64,000 nt of DNA. It comes from an uncultured Planctomycetia bacterium. GTDB taxonomy: Bacteria; Omnitrophota; Gorgyraeia; CAYWPX01. Location: contig CAYWPX010000002.1 in NCBI GenBank assembly GCA_964460615.1, positions 7,220-71,219 of the forward strand, in the 5' to 3' direction. Below, one piece after another: positions 26,622-48,155 of the stretch. The notes beneath the pieces are model-generated. The model was not told the origin of the DNA and searched no databases. It saw nothing but the letters and a program-made list of their open reading frames with translations. Numbering within the stretch: position 1 is the first letter of the stretch; every line of letters starts with the position of its first letter. The translations under genes and the position numbers were made by a program.

Positions 26622-28007
26622 TTATTCCTTAGAAGATACTTTGGAAACAAGCGCTTCAGCAAGCTTTCTCCGGCGTAACTTTCTAACAGTAATGGAGATA
26701 TTATCAAAAGACAATATTTCCCCTGCCTCAATATCTCTGCCGAGTTTTTGTTTAATCCACTCTGCAAGAGTTAATTGTTGTTCGGGCATATTTTCAATTG
26801 GAACTTCGATGTTAAGCGTTGATAAGATAATTTTCATTGAAACTGCACCACCTGCGATCCAGCCCATGCCAAAGGATTGGATATTAGCGGGAAGCCGATC
26901 AAATTCATCTTCAATTTCACCAACCAGTTCTTCAATAATATCCTCCAAAGTAATCATCCCAACAACTTTCTGCTTTTGAGAAATTACAAGAGCGATGTGC
27001 ACCTTTTCGTGCATCATTTCCGATAGAGCCTTCGAAAGCGGCGTTTCTTTAATAATTTTTTTAATTGGTCGTGTTATCCCTTTAACAGAAGGATTATTAG
27101 GGCTAATTTTTAAAGCATTCACAATATCCTTAAAATTAAGGTACCCAATAATTATTTTAGGGTCTCCAGCTTTTTCACACACAGGAAACCGCGTATGCAT
27201 ATCAAGATGCGCTTTTATCAAAGCATCGGAAAGGGTATCGGTCACCGGGATCATTGAAACATAATCAATATCAAGCATAATATCAGCTACTTTTCTTTGG
27301 GACAACTGAGCTGCTGAAAGAACAATCTTTTCTTCATGGGCTCCAATAAGTCGGGATGCCCTGGCAAGAGCAGCTGCAGCCTTTAGCTCATACAAGCTCT
27401 CTATGTCAACAGCAGATTTTCCTTTTGTTTCCTTTGGCCCTAAAATCATGATTTTCTTCACTATCGCCTCAAAAAAAGAGACAGCTGGATTCGCAATACG
27501 GGCAATTGCCTTCATTATCGGTGACAAAGCGAGGCAAACAGATTCTCTGTTATTTAAAGCAAACATTTTCGGAACTAATTCAGCAAAAATAATAGTAAAT
27601 GCGCTTAATGGTATAACAAGAGATATAAGCGCCAATATTTCCGCATACAAATATGGAATCCCTATCGTGGCAAGAAATGGCGTAAAAAATTCCTGCACGC
27701 CAACTCCTCCTATAGCCGCGGCTATAGCGCCTGCCAAGGTTATACCAAGCTGTACCACTGCAAGACTAGCTTCCATTCTGTCTTTCATATAGGCTGCTTC
27801 TTGGGCGCCCTTTTTTTTCTGTTGACAAAGAGTTGAAAGCCTTGCCCGAGAAATTGATGCAAGAGCCATCTCATAAGCGGCAAAAACAGCGTTAACAAAT
27901 AGCATTAAAAAAATAATGAGCATTTTGTAGCCAAAGTTCATATTTTTAACCTCTTTAAAATAAATAAAATCCTGCTTATATTTGCTGATTTTTTCGAAAA
28001 TTACCAA
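26622..28007 (-). CDS. HlyC/CorC-family transporter (CNNM/DUF21 TM domain, CBS pair, CorC_HlyC domain)
   Basis: DUF21-like TM N-terminus (likely start MNFGYKMLIIFL at about 27941), a central CBS pair and the C-terminal transporter-associated domain. Confidence 0.75.
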   Translation of the reverse strand: MVIFEKISKYKQDFIYFKEVKNMNFGYKMLIIFLMLFVNAVFAAYEMALASISRARLSTLCQQKKKGAQEAAYMKDRMEASLAVVQLGITLAGAIAAAIGGVGVQEFFTPFLATIGIPYLYAEILALISLVIPLSAFTIIFAELVPKMFALNNRESVCLALSPIMKAIARIANPAVSFFEAIVKKIMILGPKETKGKSAVDIESLYELKAAAALARASRLIGAHEEKIVLSAAQLSQRKVADIMLDIDYVSMIPVTDTLSDALIKAHLDMHTRFPVCEKAGDPKIIIGYLNFKDIVNALKISPNNPSVKGITRPIKKIIKETPLSKALSEMMHEKVHIALVISQKQKVVGMITLEDIIEELVGEIEDEFDRLPANIQSFGMGWIAGGAVSMKIILSTLNIEVPIENMPEQQLTLAEWIKQKLGRDIEAGEILSFDNISITVRKLRRRKLAEALVSKVSSKE

Positions 28008-28018
28008 TCTATCTTCTA

Positions 28019-29482
28019 CTAATTAATTTTAATCCGTGCCAGTAACTGCTGAAGAGTTGAAAAATCCGTAATATTAGCTAGTATCAGCAAAACATCGCCG
28101 CCTTCTATGACTGTAGATCCAGAAGGAATAATAAATTTGTCATTCCGAGAAATAAGCAAGATAAGGCACTTCTCAGGGATGTTCAAATCGCTGATTCTTT
28201 TACCTACCGCCGCTGAAATGTACGGCACAATAGCTTCCGTTAATTCCGCGTCAATACCTTCTGTTTTTTCAAATTCTATAGGATATTTCTTCCTATAGGT
28301 CAGTGGGACATCCAGTTTCAATAATTTAGAAATAAACGGAATGGATGTCCCTTGAATAAAGACCGACGCGATAACAACAAAGAATACGATATTAAAATAA
28401 ACGTCCGCCTGTGGAATGCCCGCCATAAAAGGGAACGTCGCGAGAATAATCGGAACCGATCCTCTTAGACCAACCCATCCGATCATAATTTTTTTCCGTA
28501 TACTCATCTTAAATGGCAATAGACACAGTATTACGCTGACCGGACGGGCCACTACCATCAAGAGAAATGTAAGCAATAGTCCCGCCCCTATCAACGGAAC
28601 TATATGTGAGGGAAAAACGAGCAGCCCCAGCGTAACAAACATAACGATTTGCATGAGCCAGGCCAAGCCATCATGAAATTTCATAATCATCTTTTTATTG
28701 GGAAACTCCGCATGACCCAACATTAGACCCGCTATATATACCGCCAGAAAACCGTTGCCCTTCAAAAATACGGCAATCACATACGTTAAAAGAACAAGAG
28801 AGATCATCAGCGCTAAATATAGCCCTTCGTATTCCAATTTCAAACGATTGATAAAAAATATGATAAATCTTGCCGATAGATACCCTGTGAGGGCGCCCAC
28901 GCCCATATCGATGACAAATTTTGGGATGAGGAGAGCGATATTTGACCCATTTGCTGCAATGATGCCTATAAATCCTATGGTCAAGAAAACAGCCATAGGG
29001 TCATTGCTGCCGGATTCAAATTCGAGTAGAGGCTTAAGGGGGCTTCTTAGACTTATACGTTTGGATCTCAGTATACTGAACACAGCGGCGGCATCTGTTG
29101 AGGAAACTATAGAACCCAGGAGCATTCCTTCAAGAAAAGAAAACCTCAGGATATATACGGCGAAAATCCCGGTTATAATAGCGGTCAGTAGCACTCCGGC
29201 TGTCGATAGAATAATTCCCGGCAAGACAACAGATTTAGTTTCCTTCCAATTTGTATCCAATCCGCCTGAAAAAATAATGAACATTAAAGCTATTACGCCT
29301 ATCGATTTCGCTAATTGCGCGTTGTCAAAATAAATACCGCCGATGCCTTCCGAGCCGGCAAACATACCAATCGCTAAAAATAGCAATAAAGCAGGAATGG
29401 CGAATTTATCGGAGAGTTTACTTGAAACAACGCTCGCGAATATCAACACCGCTACCCATAACAAAATATATTCAATTTGCAT
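28019..29482 (-). CDS. NhaP-type K+(Na+)/H+ antiporter (CPA1) with C-terminal TrkA_C/RCK_C domain; paralog of 40752..42236
   Basis: Polytopic N-terminal domain with ...GLRGSVPIILATFP... and a C-terminal regulatory domain; more than 75% identical to the second copy. Confidence 0.8.
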   Translation of the reverse strand: MQIEYILLWVAVLIFASVVSSKLSDKFAIPALLLFLAIGMFAGSEGIGGIYFDNAQLAKSIGVIALMFIIFSGGLDTNWKETKSVVLPGIILSTAGVLLTAIITGIFAVYILRFSFLEGMLLGSIVSSTDAAAVFSILRSKRISLRSPLKPLLEFESGSNDPMAVFLTIGFIGIIAANGSNIALLIPKFVIDMGVGALTGYLSARFIIFFINRLKLEYEGLYLALMISLVLLTYVIAVFLKGNGFLAVYIAGLMLGHAEFPNKKMIMKFHDGLAWLMQIVMFVTLGLLVFPSHIVPLIGAGLLLTFLLMVVARPVSVILCLLPFKMSIRKKIMIGWVGLRGSVPIILATFPFMAGIPQADVYFNIVFFVVIASVFIQGTSIPFISKLLKLDVPLTYRKKYPIEFEKTEGIDAELTEAIVPYISAAVGKRISDLNIPEKCLILLISRNDKFIIPSGSTVIEGGDVLLILANITDFSTLQQLLARIKIN

Positions 29483-29559
29483 AGCACTTAGCTCTTTTCC
29501 TAATCGCTATATATTATACATCCGCAGAATTTAATGGCAACAGAGGAAGCTCCTGTTCC

Positions 29560-29694
29560 TTATATGCTCTTATCGTCATTTTTCGGCGGATCATTCTTCT
29601 TTTTTCTACCTGCAAAAAGCATAAAACCAACCCATATTATTGCTCCAGCAAATAACACGTACACAATCCAATCCTGAGATAAATTACCAGTCAT
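29560..29694 (-). CDS. unannotated 44-aa single-TM small membrane protein upstream of NhaP copy 1
   Basis: My translation: MTGNLSQDWIVYVLFAGAIIWVGFMLFAGRKKKNDPPKNDDKSI. A near-identical paralog lies at 43495-43635; both are missed by the track because they are under 60 aa. Confidence 0.5.
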   Translation of the reverse strand: MTGNLSQDWIVYVLFAGAIIWVGFMLFAGRKKKNDPPKNDDKSI

Positions 29695-29775
29695 GTTTTC
29701 AGTCCCTTCTTTTTACTTAAGGCTAATATGACAAAGAATCCGTATGCAACTAACTGTTTTGAGGATATTATGAAG

Positions 29776-30141
29776 TTACGCTATGGGAGGAGCCAGCGAA
29801 TGGCAGGGTATTATTTTCGATAGATTTAAAGTTACGCGCCCACCAGTGGTTATGCGATAAATAAACAAATCCGACAATGCATATACTATAGCCGCTTCTC
29901 TAAAAAGTATTAATTTCGCAAACTTACATAGAGAGTAACCGCTAATGCCAATGCGTGGCGGCGCAGAGAATAAGTCTTCCGAAGCATTAAATATCTTCGA
30001 AACTACCGAGTTACTTCTATCACAATTAGCCAGGTTGGGATAAAAAATTGGATTTGGAAGAAAGAATAGGCAGCAATAGATAAACGATATGAATATTGCG
30101 AGCTCTTTTAGAGCACTTTTCCTTAGATAATTATTGACCAT
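29776..30141 (-). CDS. hypothetical membrane protein (SLAPP-terminal family); paralog of 43721..44092
   Basis: Both copies have an N-terminal TM, conserved FREAAIV/FKESAIV and a C-terminal C-x-SLAPP-x-A. Confidence 0.35.
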   Translation of the reverse strand: MVNNYLRKSALKELAIFISFIYCCLFFLPNPIFYPNLANCDRSNSVVSKIFNASEDLFSAPPRIGISGYSLCKFAKLILFREAAIVYALSDLFIYRITTGGRVTLNLSKIIPCHSLAPPIA

Positions 30142-30278
30142 ATCGATTTATCGCTTTTATTTAATTATTCCGCCTTTCCCCAAAGGCATCATAATTATAC
30201 TTCATTATATGAATGCGGGCAATGGGCTTGCCCATTTCGCCATTCTTATTCAATCCTTAATCGCAAAACAAGAAATTC

Positions 30279-30854
30279 TTAAATGACCATACCGATTATC
30301 TCCTCATTGGGAACCCACGACCGCACCCATGTATTCATTCCCATCTGGGACAGAAATATTTGATTTTTACTATTTGCGGGCGGGAATGTTGAGAATAAAG
30401 GTATGTCCGTCTCGTGGGTACCCCACCCCATTTCCGCGGGAGCGATACCTTCCTCCCTCAATCCTTCGATACTCCATGTCCCCACAAATTCATTATATCT
30501 CTTGGGTCTATTTGTAATCTGAGTATCGTGCTCACTTATATGGATAACCTTGACACCCAGTTCCCTCGCTAAGCAGGAGAATATCTTTGCCTTAAGGCAT
30601 TCTTTGATTTTGTGTTTTATCTTGGGCGAAAGATTGTCCTCACTTATTAATTTCTGAGCGATATCGGCTATGCCTTTCTTTGTGAAATGAGATATAAGCC
30701 CAGGATTGGCGCCATGGTCTAAGATCGCCGTTGTTTTTGGGTCTTTCCACCGGGATGCAATCTTCTGTATTTCTTTCTGACGATAGTAGAGAGACTTTTG
30801 GAATGGGGTTTTATTGTGTATGTCCGCGTAAGGATCCCACTGCTCTACAGACAT
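30279..30854 (-). pseudogene. truncated duplicate (fragment) of homospermidine synthase
   Basis: 191 aa align to residues ~107-300 of the full-length Hss at 36432..37877 (e.g. VEQWDPYADIHNKTPFQKSLYYR vs VEEWDPYAGIHNKTPLQKSLYYR; NEFVGTWSIEGLREEGI identical). It lacks the N-terminal Rossmann domain and the C-terminus. Confidence 0.6.
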
Positions 30855-31054
30855 ATTAATGTATAAAACTTTATTCTCGCGGCATATACGTTATAGCTTT
30901 ATGTTATCTATTTCTTTTCAAATTTTTGCTGTTGCCTCAGCCGCTCCTGCTCCTGTTTTAATAACTTCTGCTTATCATGTTTATTTTTATCTTTTTTGCC
31001 TTTATCTCCCATGACGTTGCCCCCTTTATGTTCAAATCAACTTCGGATTTTTAA

Positions 31055-31624
31055 TTAAAATAGGAACACAGCAGCGGCTACTACGGTAGAATAGTTTCCT
31101 TCCGTATCCACTATTGCGGATTGCGTAATGTTAGACGTGCTTATTATTTTGTCTTTTAGCTGATATATCTCTTTATTCTCATCCCATGATTTATCTTCAT
31201 CGTATTCCACACCAATCGTGGATGCCAGCATTTCGACAGCCAAATCTTCCGCAAAATCACCGGCAACGCGTTCGTTTTCGCCGAAGGCATGGTGTTCGCT
31301 TAAATACCCATATGCGTTCGGATCTGCCGGTACCGCACACCCCACACTGGCCGCTATCAAACGATGTGGCTCGTTTGAGCAACACCTCGACATAACGGTA
31401 AAGGTTATCATTCCCGAGACAAGTTCTTTCAATCCTTCGGCCCTGGGTACTATTTTACATTCTGGCGGCAAAATGCTTGAAACATGCACAAGATTGCACC
31501 TTTCTATCCCCGCATCTCTAAGAGCTAATTCGAAGCTCCTGAGTTCGGCCTTGTGGGTACCAACACCCTTTGTAAAAAACATCTTTTTAGGAACCAGTAG
31601 GTTTTTTCTGGGAACGAGTATCAT
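31055..31624 (-). CDS. pdaD: pyruvoyl-dependent arginine decarboxylase
   Basis: Size and sequence fit PdaD; NLVHVSSILPP holds the Ser-Ser self-cleavage site. Confidence 0.7.
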   Translation of the reverse strand: MILVPRKNLLVPKKMFFTKGVGTHKAELRSFELALRDAGIERCNLVHVSSILPPECKIVPRAEGLKELVSGMITFTVMSRCCSNEPHRLIAASVGCAVPADPNAYGYLSEHHAFGENERVAGDFAEDLAVEMLASTIGVEYDEDKSWDENKEIYQLKDKIISTSNITQSAIVDTEGNYSTVVAAAVFLF

Positions 31625-31642
31625 TTGTTATCCTCCTATAAA

Positions 31643-32563
31643 TTATTTTTTATTAGAAAGCGTAAAAATATAACCCAGCAATCTATATATAAGTTTCGCC
31701 GCTAGAAAGTCTGGCATAATCTGGCCCTGTATTGGACAAAGTTCTACCACATCAAATCCCACCACTTTCTTATCTTTGGCTATCTCTTTTAACAAATCTA
31801 TCGTCTCATACCACCCTATTCCACCCGGTTCTGGCGTTCCTACGGACGGCATGAGCGATGGATCAAAAACATCAAGATCAATTGTTATATACACATTATT
31901 GGATAGACTACTTGAAATATGATCTTTCCATAAAGGTTTTTCTAAAATATCATATACGCTTATAGTCTTAATGTTACCGTTAGGTTGAGTATTTAAAAAA
32001 TCTTTTTCTTCTTTTGATAGGCTGCGCACACCTGCTTGTATAATCGGGCACAATTCAGAGATGCGTCTTGCGGCACAGGCATGATTAAATTTTGACCCTA
32101 AATACTCGTCTCTTAAATCATAATGCGCATCCAGTTGCAATACTGATAGATCCGAATAATATTCTTTAAGCGCTTTAACAACCCCTACGGATACAGAATG
32201 TTCCCCTCCGAGAATTACTGGAAACTTGTTGTTTTTCATGATCTCGTTAACAGCGGCGTAAACTTTTTCTGTCATATCCTCCGGCGCACTATCCGATATA
32301 TCCGGGATTTCCGCGGTATATATTCCCGCCTTAAATGTTTCGTAATTCAATTCGTCGTCAAAAAGCTCCATATTGTGAGACGCGCTTATTATGGCGGCGG
32401 GACCATTTTTCGTTCCTTTAATATACGTTGTTGTTTTTTCATAAGGAATCTGCAATACGGCAATCTTGGACTTTTTGAAATTTGAATAGTCCTCATCTAT
32501 ATCGCCGAACCTCTTATCCGAACAACGATAAAAAACCGGCTCTGTTGTTTGTATACCGTTCAT
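31643..32563 (-). CDS. speB: agmatinase (ureohydrolase family)
   Basis: GGEHSVS, LQLDAHYDLRD and ITIDLDVFDPS are arginase-family Mn-binding motifs. Confidence 0.8.
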   Translation of the reverse strand: MNGIQTTEPVFYRCSDKRFGDIDEDYSNFKKSKIAVLQIPYEKTTTYIKGTKNGPAAIISASHNMELFDDELNYETFKAGIYTAEIPDISDSAPEDMTEKVYAAVNEIMKNNKFPVILGGEHSVSVGVVKALKEYYSDLSVLQLDAHYDLRDEYLGSKFNHACAARRISELCPIIQAGVRSLSKEEKDFLNTQPNGNIKTISVYDILEKPLWKDHISSSLSNNVYITIDLDVFDPSLMPSVGTPEPGGIGWYETIDLLKEIAKDKKVVGFDVVELCPIQGQIMPDFLAAKLIYRLLGYIFTLSNKK

Positions 32564-38990: not shown

Positions 38991-40043
38991 CTAATGAGGC
39001 AAGATTGGCAGAGCCACGATAAATGTGGAGCCCTTGCCAAGCGTACTGTTAACTGTAATATTGGCTTTGTGAAGTTCTGCTATTGACTGGGCAATCGGTA
39101 AACCAAGGCCGGAGCCTGAGGTATATCGATTTTTTTCTTTATTTGCCCGGAAAAATTTATCGAATAACTTCGGTATATCTTCTTCCGCTATGCCCATGCC
39201 GGTATCAGAAACGGATATAATAGCTTTTCTTTTCTTATATTTGATGTCTATTTTTATCTGGCCGTCTTGAGGGGTAAACTTGATGGCGTTATCAATAATA
39301 TTAAAAAATAACCTTCTCAAGCTCAGTTCGTCGCCCTTAACCTGTTCCGATATTTCCGGAATATTAATATCTACGCTTATGTTTTTTTCTGTGGTAAGGA
39401 TTTTGCTCTGTTCATGAATATCTCTAAGAAATTGGTTTAAATCGATTTTTTCAAAATTCAAGAACTCCGGCCTGTATGTCATTTTTGTGAGAAGCAGCAG
39501 GTCTTCTATGGTTTTAAGCATTTTTTTTGATTCGTCCAAAGCAATGCCAATTACTTTTTTATACTCTTCATTATCGCGTTCCTTTTTTAAAGCAATTTCC
39601 GCCTCTCCCCTTATGATGGCGATAGGTGTTTTTAATTCATGCGCTATATAAGAGTTGGATTCCACAATATATTTAAAAGAGCTTTCCAGACGTGATATCA
39701 TATCGTTGAAAGAAGAAATTAAATACTTTGTTTCCGCGCCTGAATGTTTAATATCAACTCTTGCGCTCAAATCTTCATGAGTAATCTGTTCCGCAATTTC
39801 CGCAATCTTTTTGACTGGTTTCATTATGTGTCTTACGATGGCCCGCCATACCAGATATAGGAGCGTAGCTGCTATTAAAATAGGAATAAAAAGTTTTACA
39901 AATATATATCCCTTAACCATATCATCGATTGCTTTTCTGATGTTGTCGCTTGTAAATATATAAATGAAGCAGCTATAAATAAAAAGGAAAGCGCTTAATA
40001 TGACGATATAAACCAAGTCTGTTTTAAATTTTAACTTCTTCAT
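38991..40043 (-). CDS. sensor histidine kinase (TM, HAMP, HisKA, HATPase_c)
   Basis: H-box HELKTPIAIIRGEAEIAL and a G-box GSGLGLPIAQSIAELHKANI. Confidence 0.8.
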   Translation of the reverse strand: MKKLKFKTDLVYIVILSAFLFIYSCFIYIFTSDNIRKAIDDMVKGYIFVKLFIPILIAATLLYLVWRAIVRHIMKPVKKIAEIAEQITHEDLSARVDIKHSGAETKYLISSFNDMISRLESSFKYIVESNSYIAHELKTPIAIIRGEAEIALKKERDNEEYKKVIGIALDESKKMLKTIEDLLLLTKMTYRPEFLNFEKIDLNQFLRDIHEQSKILTTEKNISVDINIPEISEQVKGDELSLRRLFFNIIDNAIKFTPQDGQIKIDIKYKKRKAIISVSDTGMGIAEEDIPKLFDKFFRANKEKNRYTSGSGLGLPIAQSIAELHKANITVNSTLGKGSTFIVALPILPH

Positions 40044-40045
40044 AT

Positions 40046-40714
40046 TTATTCTTTAAGGATATACCCTGTTCCATGGATGGTATGGATAAGCGGCTTGTCA
40101 AAATCTTTATCGATCTTGTTCCTTAGGTGATTTACAAACACATCTATTATATTTGAAAGACTGTCGAATTCCTCATTCCAGACATGCTCGGAAATCATCG
40201 TCCTCGTAATGACTTCATTCGCATTCATAATGAAATATTCCAAAAGCGCATATTCCTTGCTTGTCAGATCGATCTCCTTGCCGTCACGTTTGACTTTATG
40301 GGTAAGCTGGTTCAATTCTAAATCGGCAACCCTAAGTATCGACATCTTATCGGCTCGTTTTCTTCGAAGAAGCGCTCTTACCCGAGCTAAAAATTCATCG
40401 AACGAAAAGGGTTTTGTCAGGTAGTCATCCGCCCCAAAATCCAGCCCCTTCACCTTATCGCGCACACTGTCTTTAGCTGTAATAATCAATATGGGCGTGT
40501 CCATTTTTTTATTTCGTATATGTTTGCATATGGCAAGCCCGTTCGTATCCGGCAGCATAAGATCTAAAATTATCAGATCATAAGGATTGATATCGACCAA
40601 AAAAAGCGCGTCTTCACCATTATGGGCGATATCTATGACATAGCACTCTTCTTTTAGCCCTTTAGTGACAAAATCCGCCATTCTTTTTTCATCTTCTACC
40701 AGCAAGATTCTCAT
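40046..40714 (-). CDS. OmpR/PhoB-family response regulator
   Basis: Receiver domain plus winged-helix Trans_reg_C (LTSKEYALLEYF...GTGYIL). Confidence 0.85.
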   Translation of the reverse strand: MRILLVEDEKRMADFVTKGLKEECYVIDIAHNGEDALFLVDINPYDLIILDLMLPDTNGLAICKHIRNKKMDTPILIITAKDSVRDKVKGLDFGADDYLTKPFSFDEFLARVRALLRRKRADKMSILRVADLELNQLTHKVKRDGKEIDLTSKEYALLEYFIMNANEVITRTMISEHVWNEEFDSLSNIIDVFVNHLRNKIDKDFDKPLIHTIHGTGYILKE

Positions 40715-42253: not shown

Positions 42254-43174
42254 TTACCATTTTTTGCGCCACCAGAAAACAGCGATTATCATAACCGACA
42301 ATGCCGCTAACGCGAAGATAAACCAGAATGACAAGAAACCCTCATGTTGAGGAATCGGCAACTTCACATTCATAGAAAATAGGCTGACAATAAACGTGGG
42401 AAGCATTATACAAATCGACAGGATCGTGAGGGTCTTCATGCGGATATTTAAATTATTGCTCACCATAGAAACCCACGCGTCCATCATATTGGATATCACC
42501 TGCAGGTATATGTTAGCCTCTTCATTGCATTGCGTCGCCTCTATAGTCATATCTTCCAGAAACTCATTCTGCTCCTGCGATAAAGATATTTTCGCTGAAT
42601 TCGATTTTATCTTTTCAATCACTCGTGAATTGGAGCTTATTGCCTTTAAATAATATACCAGACTTTTTTCTAAGCTGAACATATAGAGCAAGTCCTTGTT
42701 GGTCAAGGCTTGGTTAATCTCTGCCTCAAGCTCGTTAGACACTTTATGTATTACACCAAGGTGTTCCTCGAAATGCTGGACACAACGAAATATCGTTTTT
42801 AAAAATATATCGGAAACAGAATTTAATTTTTGGAATATCCTGCTGTCAAATATATCGGTATCCTCATTCGCCACAATAATTACCTTGTCTAAAAATAAAA
42901 ACAGCCCTAAAGATGATACCTTGAACAGGAAGTTATCCGTGGCGGTATACTTCTTTGGACATTTAATAATGGCCGCTGTATGATTAGGCTCAAATTCCAG
43001 CCGGCCGAGCTCATCCGGATCCAATGCTGAATTATACGTGTGCTCATCTAGTTTAAGCTCGTTGATAAGATAGCTCGTTTCGCGTTCATCGGGTTTGGTA
43101 TAAATATGAACGGCGCCGTGCCCGCCTTCTACTTCTAACAATCTGCTTTCAACTATATTGTAGGTTTTAAGCAT
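42254..43174 (-). CDS. CorA-family divalent cation (Mg2+/Co2+) transporter, GMN-motif variant (SMN)
   Basis: Two C-terminal TM helices with FSMNVKLP in the loop position of the CorA YGMNF signature. Confidence 0.6.
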   Translation of the reverse strand: MLKTYNIVESRLLEVEGGHGAVHIYTKPDERETSYLINELKLDEHTYNSALDPDELGRLEFEPNHTAAIIKCPKKYTATDNFLFKVSSLGLFLFLDKVIIVANEDTDIFDSRIFQKLNSVSDIFLKTIFRCVQHFEEHLGVIHKVSNELEAEINQALTNKDLLYMFSLEKSLVYYLKAISSNSRVIEKIKSNSAKISLSQEQNEFLEDMTIEATQCNEEANIYLQVISNMMDAWVSMVSNNLNIRMKTLTILSICIMLPTFIVSLFSMNVKLPIPQHEGFLSFWFIFALAALSVMIIAVFWWRKKW

Positions 43175-43230
43175 ATCACTGATATTATACTACATAAAAT
43201 GCAAAATGAAAACCCAATGAGGGATAAAAC

Positions 43231-43306
43231 AAAAAACCTTTCCGCTTGATCTCGGAAAGGGTATTTTTTTAATAAAAATAAAAGCCGATAAAGATATCAG
43301 CGGCTT
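43231..43306 (-). terminator. tandem (bidirectional) Rho-independent terminators
   Basis: Minus strand: AAGCCG-ctgatatctttat-CGGCTT + TTTTATTTTTATT (plus 43282-43306; minus-strand T-run 43271-43281, just outside the stated span), then CCTTTCCG-agatcaag-CGGAAAGG + TTTTTT (43231-43260). T-runs are also present on the plus strand. Confidence 0.7.
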
Positions 43307-43468
43307 TTTCTCCTCTTTTGTCTTTCCACCGCTGGTCTTCGGCAACCCAACTACCTTTCCAGCCTTAACACCTGGCTGACGAAGGCTTGTGGCTTTGCGC
43401 CCCACGATTTCTCGTGGTTTACCTTTATCGGCTATATATAGCTTACCATACTATCTTGCTTTTGTCAA
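43271..43468 (-). promoter_or_regulatory. structured leader/sRNA element upstream of corA: promoter plus antiterminator/terminator attenuator (M-box riboswitch-like)
   Basis: TTGACA (43468-43463 on the minus strand), a 17-nt spacer, then TAAGCT. Leader segment GCCGATAAAG (minus, 43433-43424) is exactly complementary to CTTTATCGGC inside the terminator hairpin (43293-43284). AGGTGTTAAGGCT and GGAAAGAC resemble M-box conserved blocks. Confidence 0.45.
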
Positions 43469-43494: not shown

Positions 43495-43635
43495 TTACTT
43501 AGCTTTGTCATTCTTCTCTGCCGAAGGATTATCCTTTTTCTTCTTACCACCGGAAAATATCATAAAGCCAACCCATATTATCGCTCCAGCAAATAGTGCG
43601 TATACAATCCAGTCTTGAGATAAGTTGCCAGTCAT
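43495..43635 (-). CDS. unannotated 46-aa single-TM small membrane protein (paralog of 29560..29694)
   Basis: My translation: MTGNLSQDWIVYALFAGAIIWVGFMIFSGGKKKKDNPSAEKNDKAK. Confidence 0.5.
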   Translation of the reverse strand: MTGNLSQDWIVYALFAGAIIWVGFMIFSGGKKKKDNPSAEKNDKAK

Positions 43636-43720: not shown

Positions 43721-44092
43721 TTACGCTCCGGGAGGCGCTAAGGAGTAGCAGGATGATATCTTGGCAAGATATAAAGTCGGGCGCTCGATCTGCATCACTA
43801 TTATGCAGAAGAGCGCCATTGATAACGAAGATACAATGGCAGATTCTTTAAAGAGAGTTAATTTTGATAGCTTGTTCAAAGAATGGCTACTAATACTTAG
43901 TCTTGCAGGTAATGAAACGAGGCATGTCGTAACACTAAACTCTCCCGATATTACAGAATTGTTCTCGTTGAAATGATGCGGCCATGAATGAGAAAGTGAA
44001 TTCGGAATAAAAAATACACAATAATATATGGATAAAACACATATCGCCAGTAGTTTTAGAGCTTTCTTGTCTATTTTAAGATAAACCCTCAT
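43721..44092 (-). CDS. hypothetical membrane protein (SLAPP-terminal family), paralog of 29776..30141
   Basis: See copy 1. Confidence 0.35.
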   Translation of the reverse strand: MRVYLKIDKKALKLLAICVLSIYYCVFFIPNSLSHSWPHHFNENNSVISGEFSVTTCLVSLPARLSISSHSLNKLSKLTLFKESAIVSSLSMALFCIIVMQIERPTLYLAKISSCYSLAPPGA

Positions 44093-46472: not shown

Positions 46473-48155
46473 TTAATAATCGCTTGGATCCGGTACGAAG
46501 CGATCCTTCACTTCCCTGTGAACCTGCGGATGGTCTATATATCTTAAATCGGGTATACCTCTGAGTTCTCTGCTTTCCGTTATTCGCCGTGCAGTCGATA
46601 CTGGATGCTTCCATACGCGAGGGGTAATCTCGATATTGCTTACAATCATTTCAAGAGCATCCGGCCCGTCATCGTGCAATCCATTCGGGAAAAATCGGAA
46701 TTGATCTAATAAGGTCTTATGTGACAGAGAAAACTGGATAGTTCCTCTATGTATCAAGGAATCCAGTACGTGAATCCTCTTATTCTTATCCCCTCTATTA
46801 TCAACACCTATGATAGGCATATAGAGCCCCTCTGTATCAAGCTGTTGCTGTAGGTCATCCCTCATCAATTTCTGAAAATTATTTATTTCAATAATAAAGG
46901 ATGACGGCCTGTATAGCCTGCATAAATCCATTATCCGGGATACGGTTTCCTTGGGGCCTCTGCGATGGATATCGGCCTCTACAACATACAGTCGGCCATT
47001 CTCGCGGTCTCTTGCCACCATAATTATTGCCGCATAATCTCCTCGCGAGGTGTCGTCGCCCACACACGGGTCGCAGCTACCGATGAAGTCAAGCCAGTCT
47101 TTGCGCGCATCCAATAAATCATGCACGGAATCGTAGGTTTTCTCGATATAATGGAATTTAGCTACGTTAAAAACCGACGACTTGGGATCATAAGGCTCGT
47201 TTTGCAGTTCGCACGAGAATGACAGATGGTTTTCTTCGCGCAGAACCGCAAGATCGTAATAGCTCCATTTTTCAGGCCAAAGAAGCTCGACTCCTTCATC
47301 CATAGCCGCTTTATTTGCCTCATAGAGGGCCCTGGCGGCATCCGGGCCGTATTTGCCCTCGAAGTCCATCTTGTTATTATAGATTTCTGACCACTTCGAC
47401 CAGAGAGACATGTTTTTGGGGTCCGTTCGTATTGCTTTATATATTTTCTTTATCCATTCACGGTTATGATCCGGGCTCAAATATTCATTCAAAAGGCAAA
47501 GCGGATGATATAAAGTTCCCATGAAGATGAAATTCGTATTATCATCTCCGGCCATGAGGACCGACTTGGTAAACCATATTCTTAACTTTTCCATCGATGT
47601 TTCCGAAGCGGTGTCATCCGGTGTTTCTACGTCGTCAATGACTACAACGGTCGGACGGTCTTTGCCGTATTTCGTTCCGCGTATCTTCTGCCCCCGGCCA
47701 AGCGCATGCACCTTTATGCCGTTAAGCGTTTCTATTTGGGCTTTAGTCCAGCGTGGTGGTTTGGGCCTATCTTCTTTTTCAAATATCTCCGGGAAGTCGA
47801 TCCTGAATTTTTCATTCTCGGTCAACTCTTTCTTGACGTTATCGAGTATCTGTATTGCCTGATCCGCCGTATCGGAAAGAATCACTATGAATTTTTCCTT
47901 CTGATAGCAAATGGCATAGATTATATAAAATAATGATATAAGCGTGGATTTAGCAAAGCCTCGCGGCGCGGCTATGGCCACTCTTTTATTTCTGTCTTTC
48001 ATAATTGTTTCGAGAAGCTCATAAACCTCTTTATGCGCGGAAGACGGCTTGATCTTAAAGTAATGCGGCAAGTACATCTTGGCAAACGTATATAGGGATT
48101 TTTCCGAAGGCTTCTTACGCAGTGAACTGATTCCTTTTAATATATTATTTGTCAT
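46473..48155 (-). CDS. phage terminase large subunit
   Basis: Walker A VAIAAPRGFAKST, Walker B VVVIDDVETP, and a C-terminal RNase-H-like nuclease region with acidic residues. Confidence 0.8.
   Translation of the reverse strand: MTNNILKGISSLRKKPSEKSLYTFAKMYLPHYFKIKPSSAHKEVYELLETIMKDRNKRVAIAAPRGFAKSTLISLFYIIYAICYQKEKFIVILSDTADQAIQILDNVKKELTENEKFRIDFPEIFEKEDRPKPPRWTKAQIETLNGIKVHALGRGQKIRGTKYGKDRPTVVVIDDVETPDDTASETSMEKLRIWFTKSVLMAGDDNTNFIFMGTLYHPLCLLNEYLSPDHNREWIKKIYKAIRTDPKNMSLWSKWSEIYNNKMDFEGKYGPDAARALYEANKAAMDEGVELLWPEKWSYYDLAVLREENHLSFSCELQNEPYDPKSSVFNVAKFHYIEKTYDSVHDLLDARKDWLDFIGSCDPCVGDDTSRGDYAAIIMVARDRENGRLYVVEADIHRRGPKETVSRIMDLCRLYRPSSFIIEINNFQKLMRDDLQQQLDTEGLYMPIIGVDNRGDKNKRIHVLDSLIHRGTIQFSLSHKTLLDQFRFFPNGLHDDGPDALEMIVSNIEITPRVWKHPVSTARRITESRELRGIPDLRYIDHPQVHREVKDRFVPDPSDY

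Follow-up and report, generated by a model that had tools for sequence, protein, structure and literature searches.

A diverged, duplicated member of an uncharacterised Omnitrophota micro-protein family encoded near K+/H+ antiporters

Membrane proteins of very small size regularly escape annotation or carry only the label 'hypothetical', and the few that have been studied, such as KdpF, AcrZ and MgtS, proved to be real regulators of transporters. KdpF, of 29 amino acids (aa), is part of KdpFABC, a K+ pump; AcrZ, MgtS, MgtR, MntS and CydX are likewise micro-proteins bound to transporters. Small hydrophobic proteins also act as toxins, in toxin-antitoxin systems of types I and V, for example Hok, TisB and GhoT/GhoS. 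Here we analyse a 64,000-nucleotide (nt) stretch of DNA, hereafter the window, from an uncultured bacterium of GTDB lineage Omnitrophota (assembly GCA_964460615.1, contig CAYWPX010000002.1, positions 7,220 to 71,219), which contains two copies of a gene for a single-helix micro-protein of 44 or 46 aa. Each is preceded by an open reading frame (ORF) of 121 or 123 aa, with which it forms what we call the cassette, and each lies in a cluster with a K+/H+ antiporter gene.

The antiporters KhtU and CpeB, which offer a second point of reference, are of the CPA2 type. Their operons, KhtSTU of Bacillus subtilis and CpeABC of Streptomyces, are K+/H+ antiporter operons with an RCK_C/TrkA_C module and a small extra ORF, KhtS and CpeC respectively (PMC10117811). 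A third is the nhaA-I riboswitch class, which according to White et al. (2022, PMC9646797) senses Li+, with a Na+ response in some variants, and whose gene associations include nhaD, otsA, 'citrate transporter' and 171 'hypothetical' genes; in text searches of that paper, genes of the kind described here appear only under 'hypothetical'. Trehalose, the product of some of the genes discussed below, is considered to serve Omnitrophota as a compatible solute (PMC8542988). A literature search returned no paper mentioning DUF5752, a neighbour of the family in other genomes, and nothing on micro-ORFs of the MTGNLxQDW type; for neither cassette protein did we find a curated family, a solved structure or a paper.

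The 44/46-aa ORF is a genuine, strongly conserved protein-coding gene. A preliminary description of this stretch had proposed two paralogous modules, each of an approximately 120-aa ORF, a small single-helix ORF and a K+/H+ antiporter; both are present (Table 1), and the identity that it gave for the small ORFs, about 85% over the first 28 residues, is 25/28 (89%), with 73% overall. Across codons 1–29 the copies differ by 11 synonymous and 3 non-synonymous changes (binomial p = 9e-6), so that non-synonymous divergence (dN) is 0.045 and synonymous divergence (dS) 1.13; this comparison had been fixed beforehand as the test on which the ORF might fail, and it survived. Mean dN/dS is ~0.04 across 12 distinct window-type DNA variants, the N-terminal motif is preserved through synonymous changes that include TCT to AGT serine codons, and the frame is intact in 20 distinct DNA variants. 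With synonymous change so concentrated, and with serine codons switched, the conservation cannot be that of an RNA. A Shine-Dalgarno-like AAGGA/GGGA stands before the MTGNL start in 12/12 window-type variants; the site reads GAAGGGA upstream of the 44-aa ORF in copy 1, and AAAGGAAA precedes the 46-aa ATG in copy 2. The copy 2 frame is also open from an upstream ATG (a 57-aa reading), and the methionine that begins the 46-aa reading (M1) is invariant in the family.

An AlphaFold2 (AF2) model of the peptide, made from a 55-sequence alignment, contains one helix at residues 9–31, with a predicted local distance difference test score (pLDDT) of 94 for residues 11–20, and a disordered Lys-rich tail, which reads RKKKNDPPK and GKKKKDNPS in the two window copies. 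By the positive-inside rule the N-terminus would lie outside the membrane and the Lys-rich tail inside. The peptide has no meaningful match in Pfam, NCBIfam, PADLOC or PHROGs, nor, when the family profile was used, among PDB sequences (none below E = 1); at E <= 1, Pfam and NCBIfam returned only sub-threshold matches to hydrophobic segments (TrbC, LPXTG anchor, DUF3098), and no curated model in those two databases for KdpF, OadG or another catalogued small transporter subunit matched it. Promoter, hairpin and Rfam scans revealed no conserved antisense promoter or RNA nearby. The small ORFs had been described as unannotated, which does not hold everywhere, since public gene calls on the 257,687-bp source contig already list the 44-aa and 123-aa ORFs as 'hypothetical protein'.

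By their sequences, the window peptides are a diverged subtype of a large uncharacterised micro-protein family, named so far from Omnitrophota only. A search with the single peptide sequence recovered 11 close relatives only; a family profile including distant members matched 200 clusters at E <= 1, the best 120 of which range from E = 2e-19 to 2e-15. Candidatus Omnitrophota is the sole organism named among the matches listed, and the conservation beyond this genome that the preliminary description had called for is found in peptide homologues across that phylum. Lengths among the matches listed are 35–51 aa from the conserved MTGNL start, a range into which the window peptides of 44 and 46 aa fit, and the family consensus is MTGNLxQDWPVYVLLGAVVFFF.YVIIKGN followed by a Lys-rich tail. 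When residues were counted in 121 family cluster sequences, M1, G3, L5, Q7 and W9 were present in all 121, D8 and V11 in 120 and T2 in 119. Both window peptides start MTGNLSQDWIVY(V/A)L and so share the family start motif, M-T-G-N-L-x-Q-D-W, x-V-Y-x-L. Their subtype, with Ile at position 10 and the AGAIIWVGFM helix (...LFAGAIIWVGFM...), accounts for 11/121 sequences, and the other subtype for 110/121.

Judged by gene order and regulation, the family belongs to a salt and cation stress operon. In 15 distinct loci of the other subtype the recurring order is OtsA, sometimes MscS, OtsB, DUF5752, a TreT-type trehalose synthase, an nhaA-I riboswitch, micro-ORFs, the MTGNL peptide and a permease. One to four other conserved single-helix micro-ORFs precede the peptide, sometimes with a 202-aa Rnf/Nqr-like or a PII-like protein. 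TreT is encoded upstream of the peptide in 12/15 loci, and an nhaA-I aptamer lies upstream on the same strand in 9/15, once in tandem. Immediately downstream comes a 423-aa CitMHS/ArsB/NhaD-like permease in 8/15 loci (at 2–12 nt), a P-type cation ATPase followed by a Na/Ca exchanger in one (at 23 nt) and an H+/Na+ pyrophosphatase in one (at 132 nt). One locus, L037, has a second nhaA-I aptamer (519–575) directly upstream of otsA, so placed that trehalose synthesis and the micro-ORF/exporter unit both appear to be under Li+/Na+ riboswitch control.

The micro-ORFs of the canonical loci are an observation in their own right. Batteries of 3–6 single-helix micro-ORFs (28–51 aa) lie downstream of nhaA-I aptamers in Omnitrophota (Table 1), drawn from the families MKxIFIIMGVCILAGVLCVIFA..., MKLSGWIFMIISW...SRIFKKGLGG..., M...LQQLGVLxLAILFS..., a short MTGN(F/V)WH(D/G)W paralogue and MTGNLxQDW itself, and are sometimes accompanied by a lone 202-aa Rnf/Nqr-family protein. 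The battery has no match in Pfam or NCBIfam, and may form part of the 171 'hypothetical' nhaA-I genes counted by White et al. Two canonical loci (L024, 2008–2283; L030, 465–749) also encode an unassigned protein of about 91 aa that ends ...KPLY.(Y/F)W(F/I)KK.

We favour, with a probability of roughly 55%, the reading that the micro-protein takes part in the response to salt and cation stress as a small membrane subunit or modulator, rather than as a dedicated subunit of NhaP2/CvrA. Since the exporter next to it differs between loci (NhaD-like permease, pyrophosphatase, P-type ATPase or NhaP2), the peptide would be either promiscuous or dependent on a constant partner; it may stabilise or tune whichever cation exporter is co-expressed, or act via a partner that is constant across loci, with the companion micro-proteins as candidates. 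In the window's clade it would have moved next to CvrA, CorA and CNNM, and the change of the transmembrane face to ...LFAGAIIWVGFM... after the move, with the external MTGNLSQDW motif kept, would fit a change of partner. Several points weigh against this reading. The association with transporters is one of gene neighbourhood, and the variety of downstream exporters can equally be reconciled with a peptide that has no transporter partner; in 5/15 canonical loci the next genes after the peptide are not transporters. TreT, CitMHS and nhaA-I are all lacking from the 64-kb window, so the canonical context is not reproduced there and a function carried over from it is a step that we infer. Finally, the window-type loci all come from one narrow clade, and their shared synteny with the antiporter in 9/9 cases does not represent nine independent events.

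The 121-aa ORF is also a genuine gene, weakly constrained, fast-evolving and restricted to the clade. The 121- and 123-aa copies share 45% identity (E = 2e-26) and, as had been described, the ending C-x-SLAPP-x-A, a signature whose Cys is not kept in relatives. The traits of the family are a length of 121–125 aa, an N-terminal hydrophobic helix and the C-terminus (S/A)LAPPx(A/V/T), and both window copies and 10 further variants share them. The frame has 0 stops in 12/12 variants that share 42–55% protein identity, against 3–16 stops in the other five frames, and a shuffled sequence would be free of stops with a probability of 0.0005. In six close pairs synonymous change is in excess, with dN/dS ~0.2–0.45 (p = 0.0004–0.004). 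When 1.84e9 representative proteins were searched exhaustively with a profile, only six true relatives emerged, the most distant of which (P0019, locus L034) has no peptide downstream; a 1028-aa match from this search, P0020, was discarded as a spurious repetitive translation. Nothing meaningful was found in Pfam, NCBIfam, PADLOC or PHROGs, and the AF2 model is uninformative (pLDDT 44.6). Derivation of the ORF by fusion of canonical small ORFs was rejected (hhalign probability 0.9% against the LQQLGVL family), as was antisense coding, for which a 71–76-aa ORF exists in copy-2-type loci and is broken in other types (3–16 stops). The protein may serve the peptide as a membrane partner peculiar to this clade, and its invariant extreme C-terminus, (S/A)LAPPx(A/V/T), is speculatively taken by us to resemble a recognition tail for a protease or PDZ domain.

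This gene has a history distinct from that of its flanks. Between the window and locus L014, DNA identity is 91.8% over a block that starts exactly at the peptide ATG and closes with the antiporter, and 87.9% over the hss fragment on the other side; the 121-aa ORF and its spacers (window 29695–30256 against L014 1824–3588) cannot be aligned save for the last 71 nt of the ORF, and L014 has ~1.3 kb of extra sequence in this region. The peptide and antiporter have therefore been inherited together, and the pattern suggests that the 121-aa gene, unalignable amid flanks of 88–92% identity, was either exchanged as a cassette or diverged far faster than they did.

In 12/12 window-type variants the 121–125-aa ORF lies 78–105 nt upstream of the peptide, and the pair is in a same-strand cluster with a K+/H+ antiporter in 9/9 variants whose contig is long enough. 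The synteny with NhaP foreseen in the preliminary description thus holds for every testable variant of the window's clade and fails in the other subtype, where other genes stand beside the peptide in 15/15 loci. The cassette occupies four positions within one K+/Mg2+ cation-transport island: between an hss fragment and the antiporter (window copy 1, L013–L015); between corA, itself preceded by a riboswitch, and the antiporter (L005, L016, L022); ahead of the riboswitch, corA and antiporter (window copy 2, L009, L019–L021); and, in L001, after antiporter, CNNM and DUF454 genes, 3.3 kb downstream of the antiporter and followed by a terminator-like hairpin and unrelated restriction-modification genes. 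Copy 2 may or may not have acquired corA and the leader RNA, as had been proposed; relatives also show the second of these arrangements, with riboswitch and corA ahead of the cassette. A DUF454 protein is encoded directly upstream of the 124-aa ORF in L001–L004 (L003, 5150–5506). Two window-type loci, L009 and L010 (JAKLHJ010000092.1 and JAKLHJ010000006.1), belong to the GTDB representative 'Patescibacteria group bacterium RA.bin60'; its peptide, antiporter and corA products share 73–93% protein identity with those of the window, close relatives are named Candidatus Omnitrophota in NCBI, and the 'Patescibacteria' label or the binning may be wrong.

The duplication, which had been taken to be recent, is old by the measure of sequence divergence, because dS is near saturation and both copy types are matched in other contigs. 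The window antiporters, described earlier as nearly identical, are 80% identical, with dS 1.72 and dN 0.124; the peptides have dS 1.13 as given above, and the proportion of synonymous differences (pS) between the 121-aa ORF copies is 0.76. Close counterparts exist elsewhere for each copy (L015 for copy 1 at 94% DNA identity, L020 for copy 2 at 98% protein identity), and one other metagenome-assembled genome holds two arrangement types.

Table 1. Features of the two modules, their surroundings and related micro-ORF batteries. Positions without a locus handle are coordinates of the 64-kb window, where all features of both modules lie on the minus strand.
Feature	Position	Strand	Remarks
121-aa ORF, copy 1	29776-30141	-	N-terminal hydrophobic helix, second helix ~73-97, C-terminal SLAPPIA
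Micro-protein gene, copy 1, 44 aa	29560-29694	-	MTGNLSQDW motif, one transmembrane helix, Lys-rich tail
K+/H+ antiporter, copy 1, 487 aa	28019-29482	-	CPA1 exchanger + TrkA_C; CvrA/NhaP2 type
Promoter-like site TTGCCC-17-TATAAT	30194-30222	-	Upstream of 121-aa ORF copy 1; 10/12 consensus positions
Promoter-like site TTGCCA-16-TATAAT	29513-29540	-	Between peptide stop and antiporter ATG; 11/12 consensus positions
123-aa ORF, copy 2	43721-44092	-	Paralogue of 121-aa ORF; ends in SLAPPGA
Micro-protein gene, copy 2	43495-43635	-	46 aa from conserved MTGNL start
c-di-GMP-I-GGC riboswitch aptamer	43337-43432	-	Between peptide copy 2 and corA; Rfam RF03167
Two terminator-like hairpins with U-tracts	43284-43301 and 43237-43260	-	Putative riboswitch expression platform
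corA, CorA-family divalent-cation channel	42254-43174	-	Pfam CorA 1e-40
K+/H+ antiporter, copy 2, 494 aa	40752-42236	-	Starts 17 nt after corA stop
OmpR-type response regulator + HAMP/HisKA histidine kinase	38991-40714	-	3' of antiporter 2, context
CNNM/CBS/CorC-type divalent-cation transporter	26622-28007	-	3' of antiporter 1, context
Saccharopine-dehydrogenase-family gene fragment (hss in the preliminary description; assigned to family level only)	30279-30854	-	Sacchrp_dh_C match; abuts copy 1
Pyruvoyl-dependent arginine decarboxylase	31055-31624	-	Polyamine set
Agmatinase/arginase-family gene	31643-32563	-	Polyamine set
Micro-ORF battery loci	L031 3872-5144; L036 5564-6144; L035 4871-6147; L037 5559-6180; L038 3823-5144		
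Micro-ORF battery loci, further	L039 4400-5144; L011 1185-1966; L026 300-1432; L043 5150-6147		

Both window antiporters have an Na_H_Exchanger membrane domain and a C-terminal TrkA_C (RCK_C) domain (Pfam Na_H_Exchanger 4e-49 and TrkA_C in copy 1) and are assigned to the CvrA/NhaP2-type CPA1 exchangers, with 593.7 and 607.9 bits on NCBIfam NF003716 for copies 1 and 2 (cutoff 355); public gene calls name the antiporter CvrA or potassium/proton antiporter. It had been placed immediately 3' of the small ORF, which is correct for copy 1, where gaps of 81 nt (121-aa ORF to peptide) and 77 nt (peptide to antiporter) separate the genes, and incorrect for copy 2, where the riboswitch and corA intervene. 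The promoter-like sites of Table 1 were identified by consensus matching alone. The element between peptide and antiporter is kept, by alignment, in five diverged relatives (L005, L013, L015, L016, L022), and each antiporter unit has its own promoter-like site. With a near-consensus promoter at this position, the antiporter need not be co-transcribed with the peptide.

Copy 1 abuts the end of a polyamine gene set (30257–32563, minus strand), of which the hss-like fragment is the last member. In comparison with the full-length gene of L001 the fragment has lost an internal stretch and retains its last 36 nt at 30257–30292; similarly truncated copies occur in L005 and L014. A 14-nt direct repeat (AATCGRTATGGTCA, minus strand) is found at 30135–30148, at the start codon of the 121-aa ORF, and at 30284–30297, at the end of the hss fragment, bracketing the promoter-like site upstream of that ORF, and may be a recombination junction. 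It was the only repeat recovered when flanking repeats of a mobile element were sought, and there were no terminal inverted repeats. A permissive Rfam scan of 29400–30300 found no hidden RNA element (nhaA-I or other riboswitch) in copy 1.

The gene order of copy 2 is rubrerythrin, 123-aa ORF, 46-aa ORF, riboswitch, two terminator-like hairpins, corA, antiporter, response regulator and histidine kinase, with 85 nt between the 123-aa ORF and the peptide. The aptamer is assigned to its class by a full-length match (1–80) to RF03167 of 62.8 bits against a gathering score of 59. Its 5' edge (43420–43433, 14 nt) is complementary to 43283–43296, which is also the 3' half of the terminator hairpin preceding the U-tract, and the fold of the region (43225–43440) has z = -5.7. 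The same aptamer lies upstream of corA in L009, L016, L021 and L022, and in copy 2 it is predicted to control corA and the antiporter. The OmpR-type regulator/kinase pair is also found 3' of the antiporter in L005. Some 2.4 kb upstream (5') of copy 2 there may be a prophage or phage remnant: a 560-aa ORF (46473–48155, minus strand) has a sub-threshold match to a phage T7-type terminase RNaseH-like domain (20.6 bits, cutoff 27).

The preliminary description had proposed an accessory or regulatory role for the peptide, as a subunit dedicated to the NhaP2/CvrA antiporter and comparable to KdpF or AcrZ, in a unit made up of the 121-aa protein, peptide and antiporter. The 9/9 clustering of cassette and antiporter on one strand, their spacing of 56–81 nt, cassette upstream, in five distinct arrangements, the block of 91.8% identity that joins peptide to antiporter in L014 while the 121-aa ORF differs, and the clade-specific transmembrane face are all what such a subunit would produce. 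We nevertheless find it unlikely, because a conserved near-consensus promoter separates peptide from antiporter, a promoter-like site, riboswitch, terminators and corA intervene in copy 2, the cassette of L001 lies 3.3 kb beyond the antiporter just before a terminator-like hairpin, and 110/121 family sequences are of the other subtype, in which 0/15 loci examined have this antiporter beside the peptide. A bolder proposal, which we hold to be unlikely, is that MTGNLxQDW and the companion micro-ORFs together make up a membrane assembly, so far undescribed, for sensing or handling Na+/Li+. Its candidate members would be the MKLSGWIFMIISW..., ...LQQLGVLxLAILFS... and MKxIFIIMGVCILAGVLCVIFA... families, the shorter MTGN paralogue and sometimes the Rnf/Nqr-like 202-aa protein; the Li+/Na+ riboswitch would switch it on together with trehalose synthesis and the Na+ exporter, and the window's clade would have rewired one subunit to the K+/H+ antiporter/CorA island with a new, rapidly diversifying 121-aa partner.

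The very short ORF might instead be a regulatory upstream ORF encoding a leader peptide, whose translation or membrane insertion, and not the finished peptide, controls transporter expression. Gaps of 2–23 nt to the canonical transporter genes suggest translational coupling, and the peptide is often found in a riboswitch-controlled leader region. Conservation is highest, however, in the N-terminal motif and the whole helix, and the C-terminal residues that would occupy the ribosome exit tunnel are variable; between the window peptide and the antiporter there is a promoter instead of an attenuator or terminator, and elsewhere the peptide is the last gene before a terminator-like hairpin (L001) or precedes unrelated genes, all of which makes a leader peptide very unlikely. 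A still lower estimate attaches to a semi-mobile module in which the peptide is a membrane-active toxin (type I or GhoT-like), the 121-aa protein its antidote or immunity partner, and the link with transporters incidental. A small hydrophobic peptide with a charged tail, four different insertion positions, a 121-aa gene swapped or hypervariable between flanks of 88–92% identity and two copies per genome would suit this account, but the peptide is conserved across the sampled Omnitrophota, keeps to a fixed place in the operon and is under very strong purifying selection, all four positions fall within the same cation-transport island, PADLOC gave no matches, and no conserved antisense promoter or RNA was seen. 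By the marks of type I toxin-antitoxin systems, a hydrophobic peptide is present; there is no convincing antisense promoter and no RNA family match, and conservation is broad. The accounts of the peptide as an NhaP subunit, as a leader and as a toxin are each less well supported than that of a modulator acting in salt and cation stress. That the small ORFs are chance frames in a leader conserved as RNA, as their size and lack of family annotation might suggest, has a negligible probability: 11/14 substitutions are synonymous (p = 9e-6), so that analysis at the codon level refutes it, and the TCT/AGT serine switches, the intact ORF in 20 DNA variants and the lack of an Rfam match point the same way.

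A micro-protein beside a transporter is a known concept, from KdpF, AcrZ and MgtS; what is new here is this family, which comprises at least 200 clusters in an uncultured phylum and has a nine-residue N-terminal motif that is unusually invariant and predicted to face outward. Gene order ties it to salt stress, through trehalose synthesis, Na+/K+ exporters and, in many genomes, a Li+/Na+ riboswitch, and it may explain part of the large 'hypothetical' gene class downstream of nhaA-I riboswitches. Its members are short, easily synthesised candidates for studying how cation exporters are tuned. The result for the window is more modest: the family has a real representative there, diverged and duplicated, whose companion gene is restricted to the clade.

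Set beside the described systems, the window peptide resembles KdpF, AcrZ, MgtS, MgtR, MntS and CydX in being a single-helix protein of fewer than 50 aa encoded beside cation transporter genes, and by analogy it plausibly binds a transporter in the membrane and is expressed under ion stress; unlike them, it has no sequence relationship to such proteins (Pfam, NCBIfam), its neighbouring exporter varies, and in the window a promoter separates it from the antiporter. With Hok, TisB and GhoT it shares size, a single hydrophobic helix, a charged tail and multiple copies, and with ghoST a two-gene layout in which a partner of ~100–120 aa is encoded first; it differs from these toxins in its vertical conservation in the sampled Omnitrophota, fixed operon position, invariant external motif and very low dN/dS, and from type I toxins in that no antisense RNA was seen and PADLOC gave no match. 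By position, the cassette ahead of an antiporter that bears TrkA_C recalls KhtS and CpeC; in contrast to KhtSTU and CpeABC, the window antiporter is a CPA1-type CvrA, and the cassette carries a promoter-like site of its own and changes place independently of the antiporter. The canonical peptides, directly downstream of nhaA-I aptamers, are placed like the genes under Li+-I (nhaA-I) and Na+-I riboswitch control (nhaA, nhaD, DUF1646, oadG, otsA), and the loci with an NhaD-like permease and otsA/otsB/treT match the associations given by White et al. (2022, PMC9646797). The window copies depart from this pattern in having no nhaA-I element, and copy 2 is followed by a c-di-GMP-I-GGC riboswitch instead.

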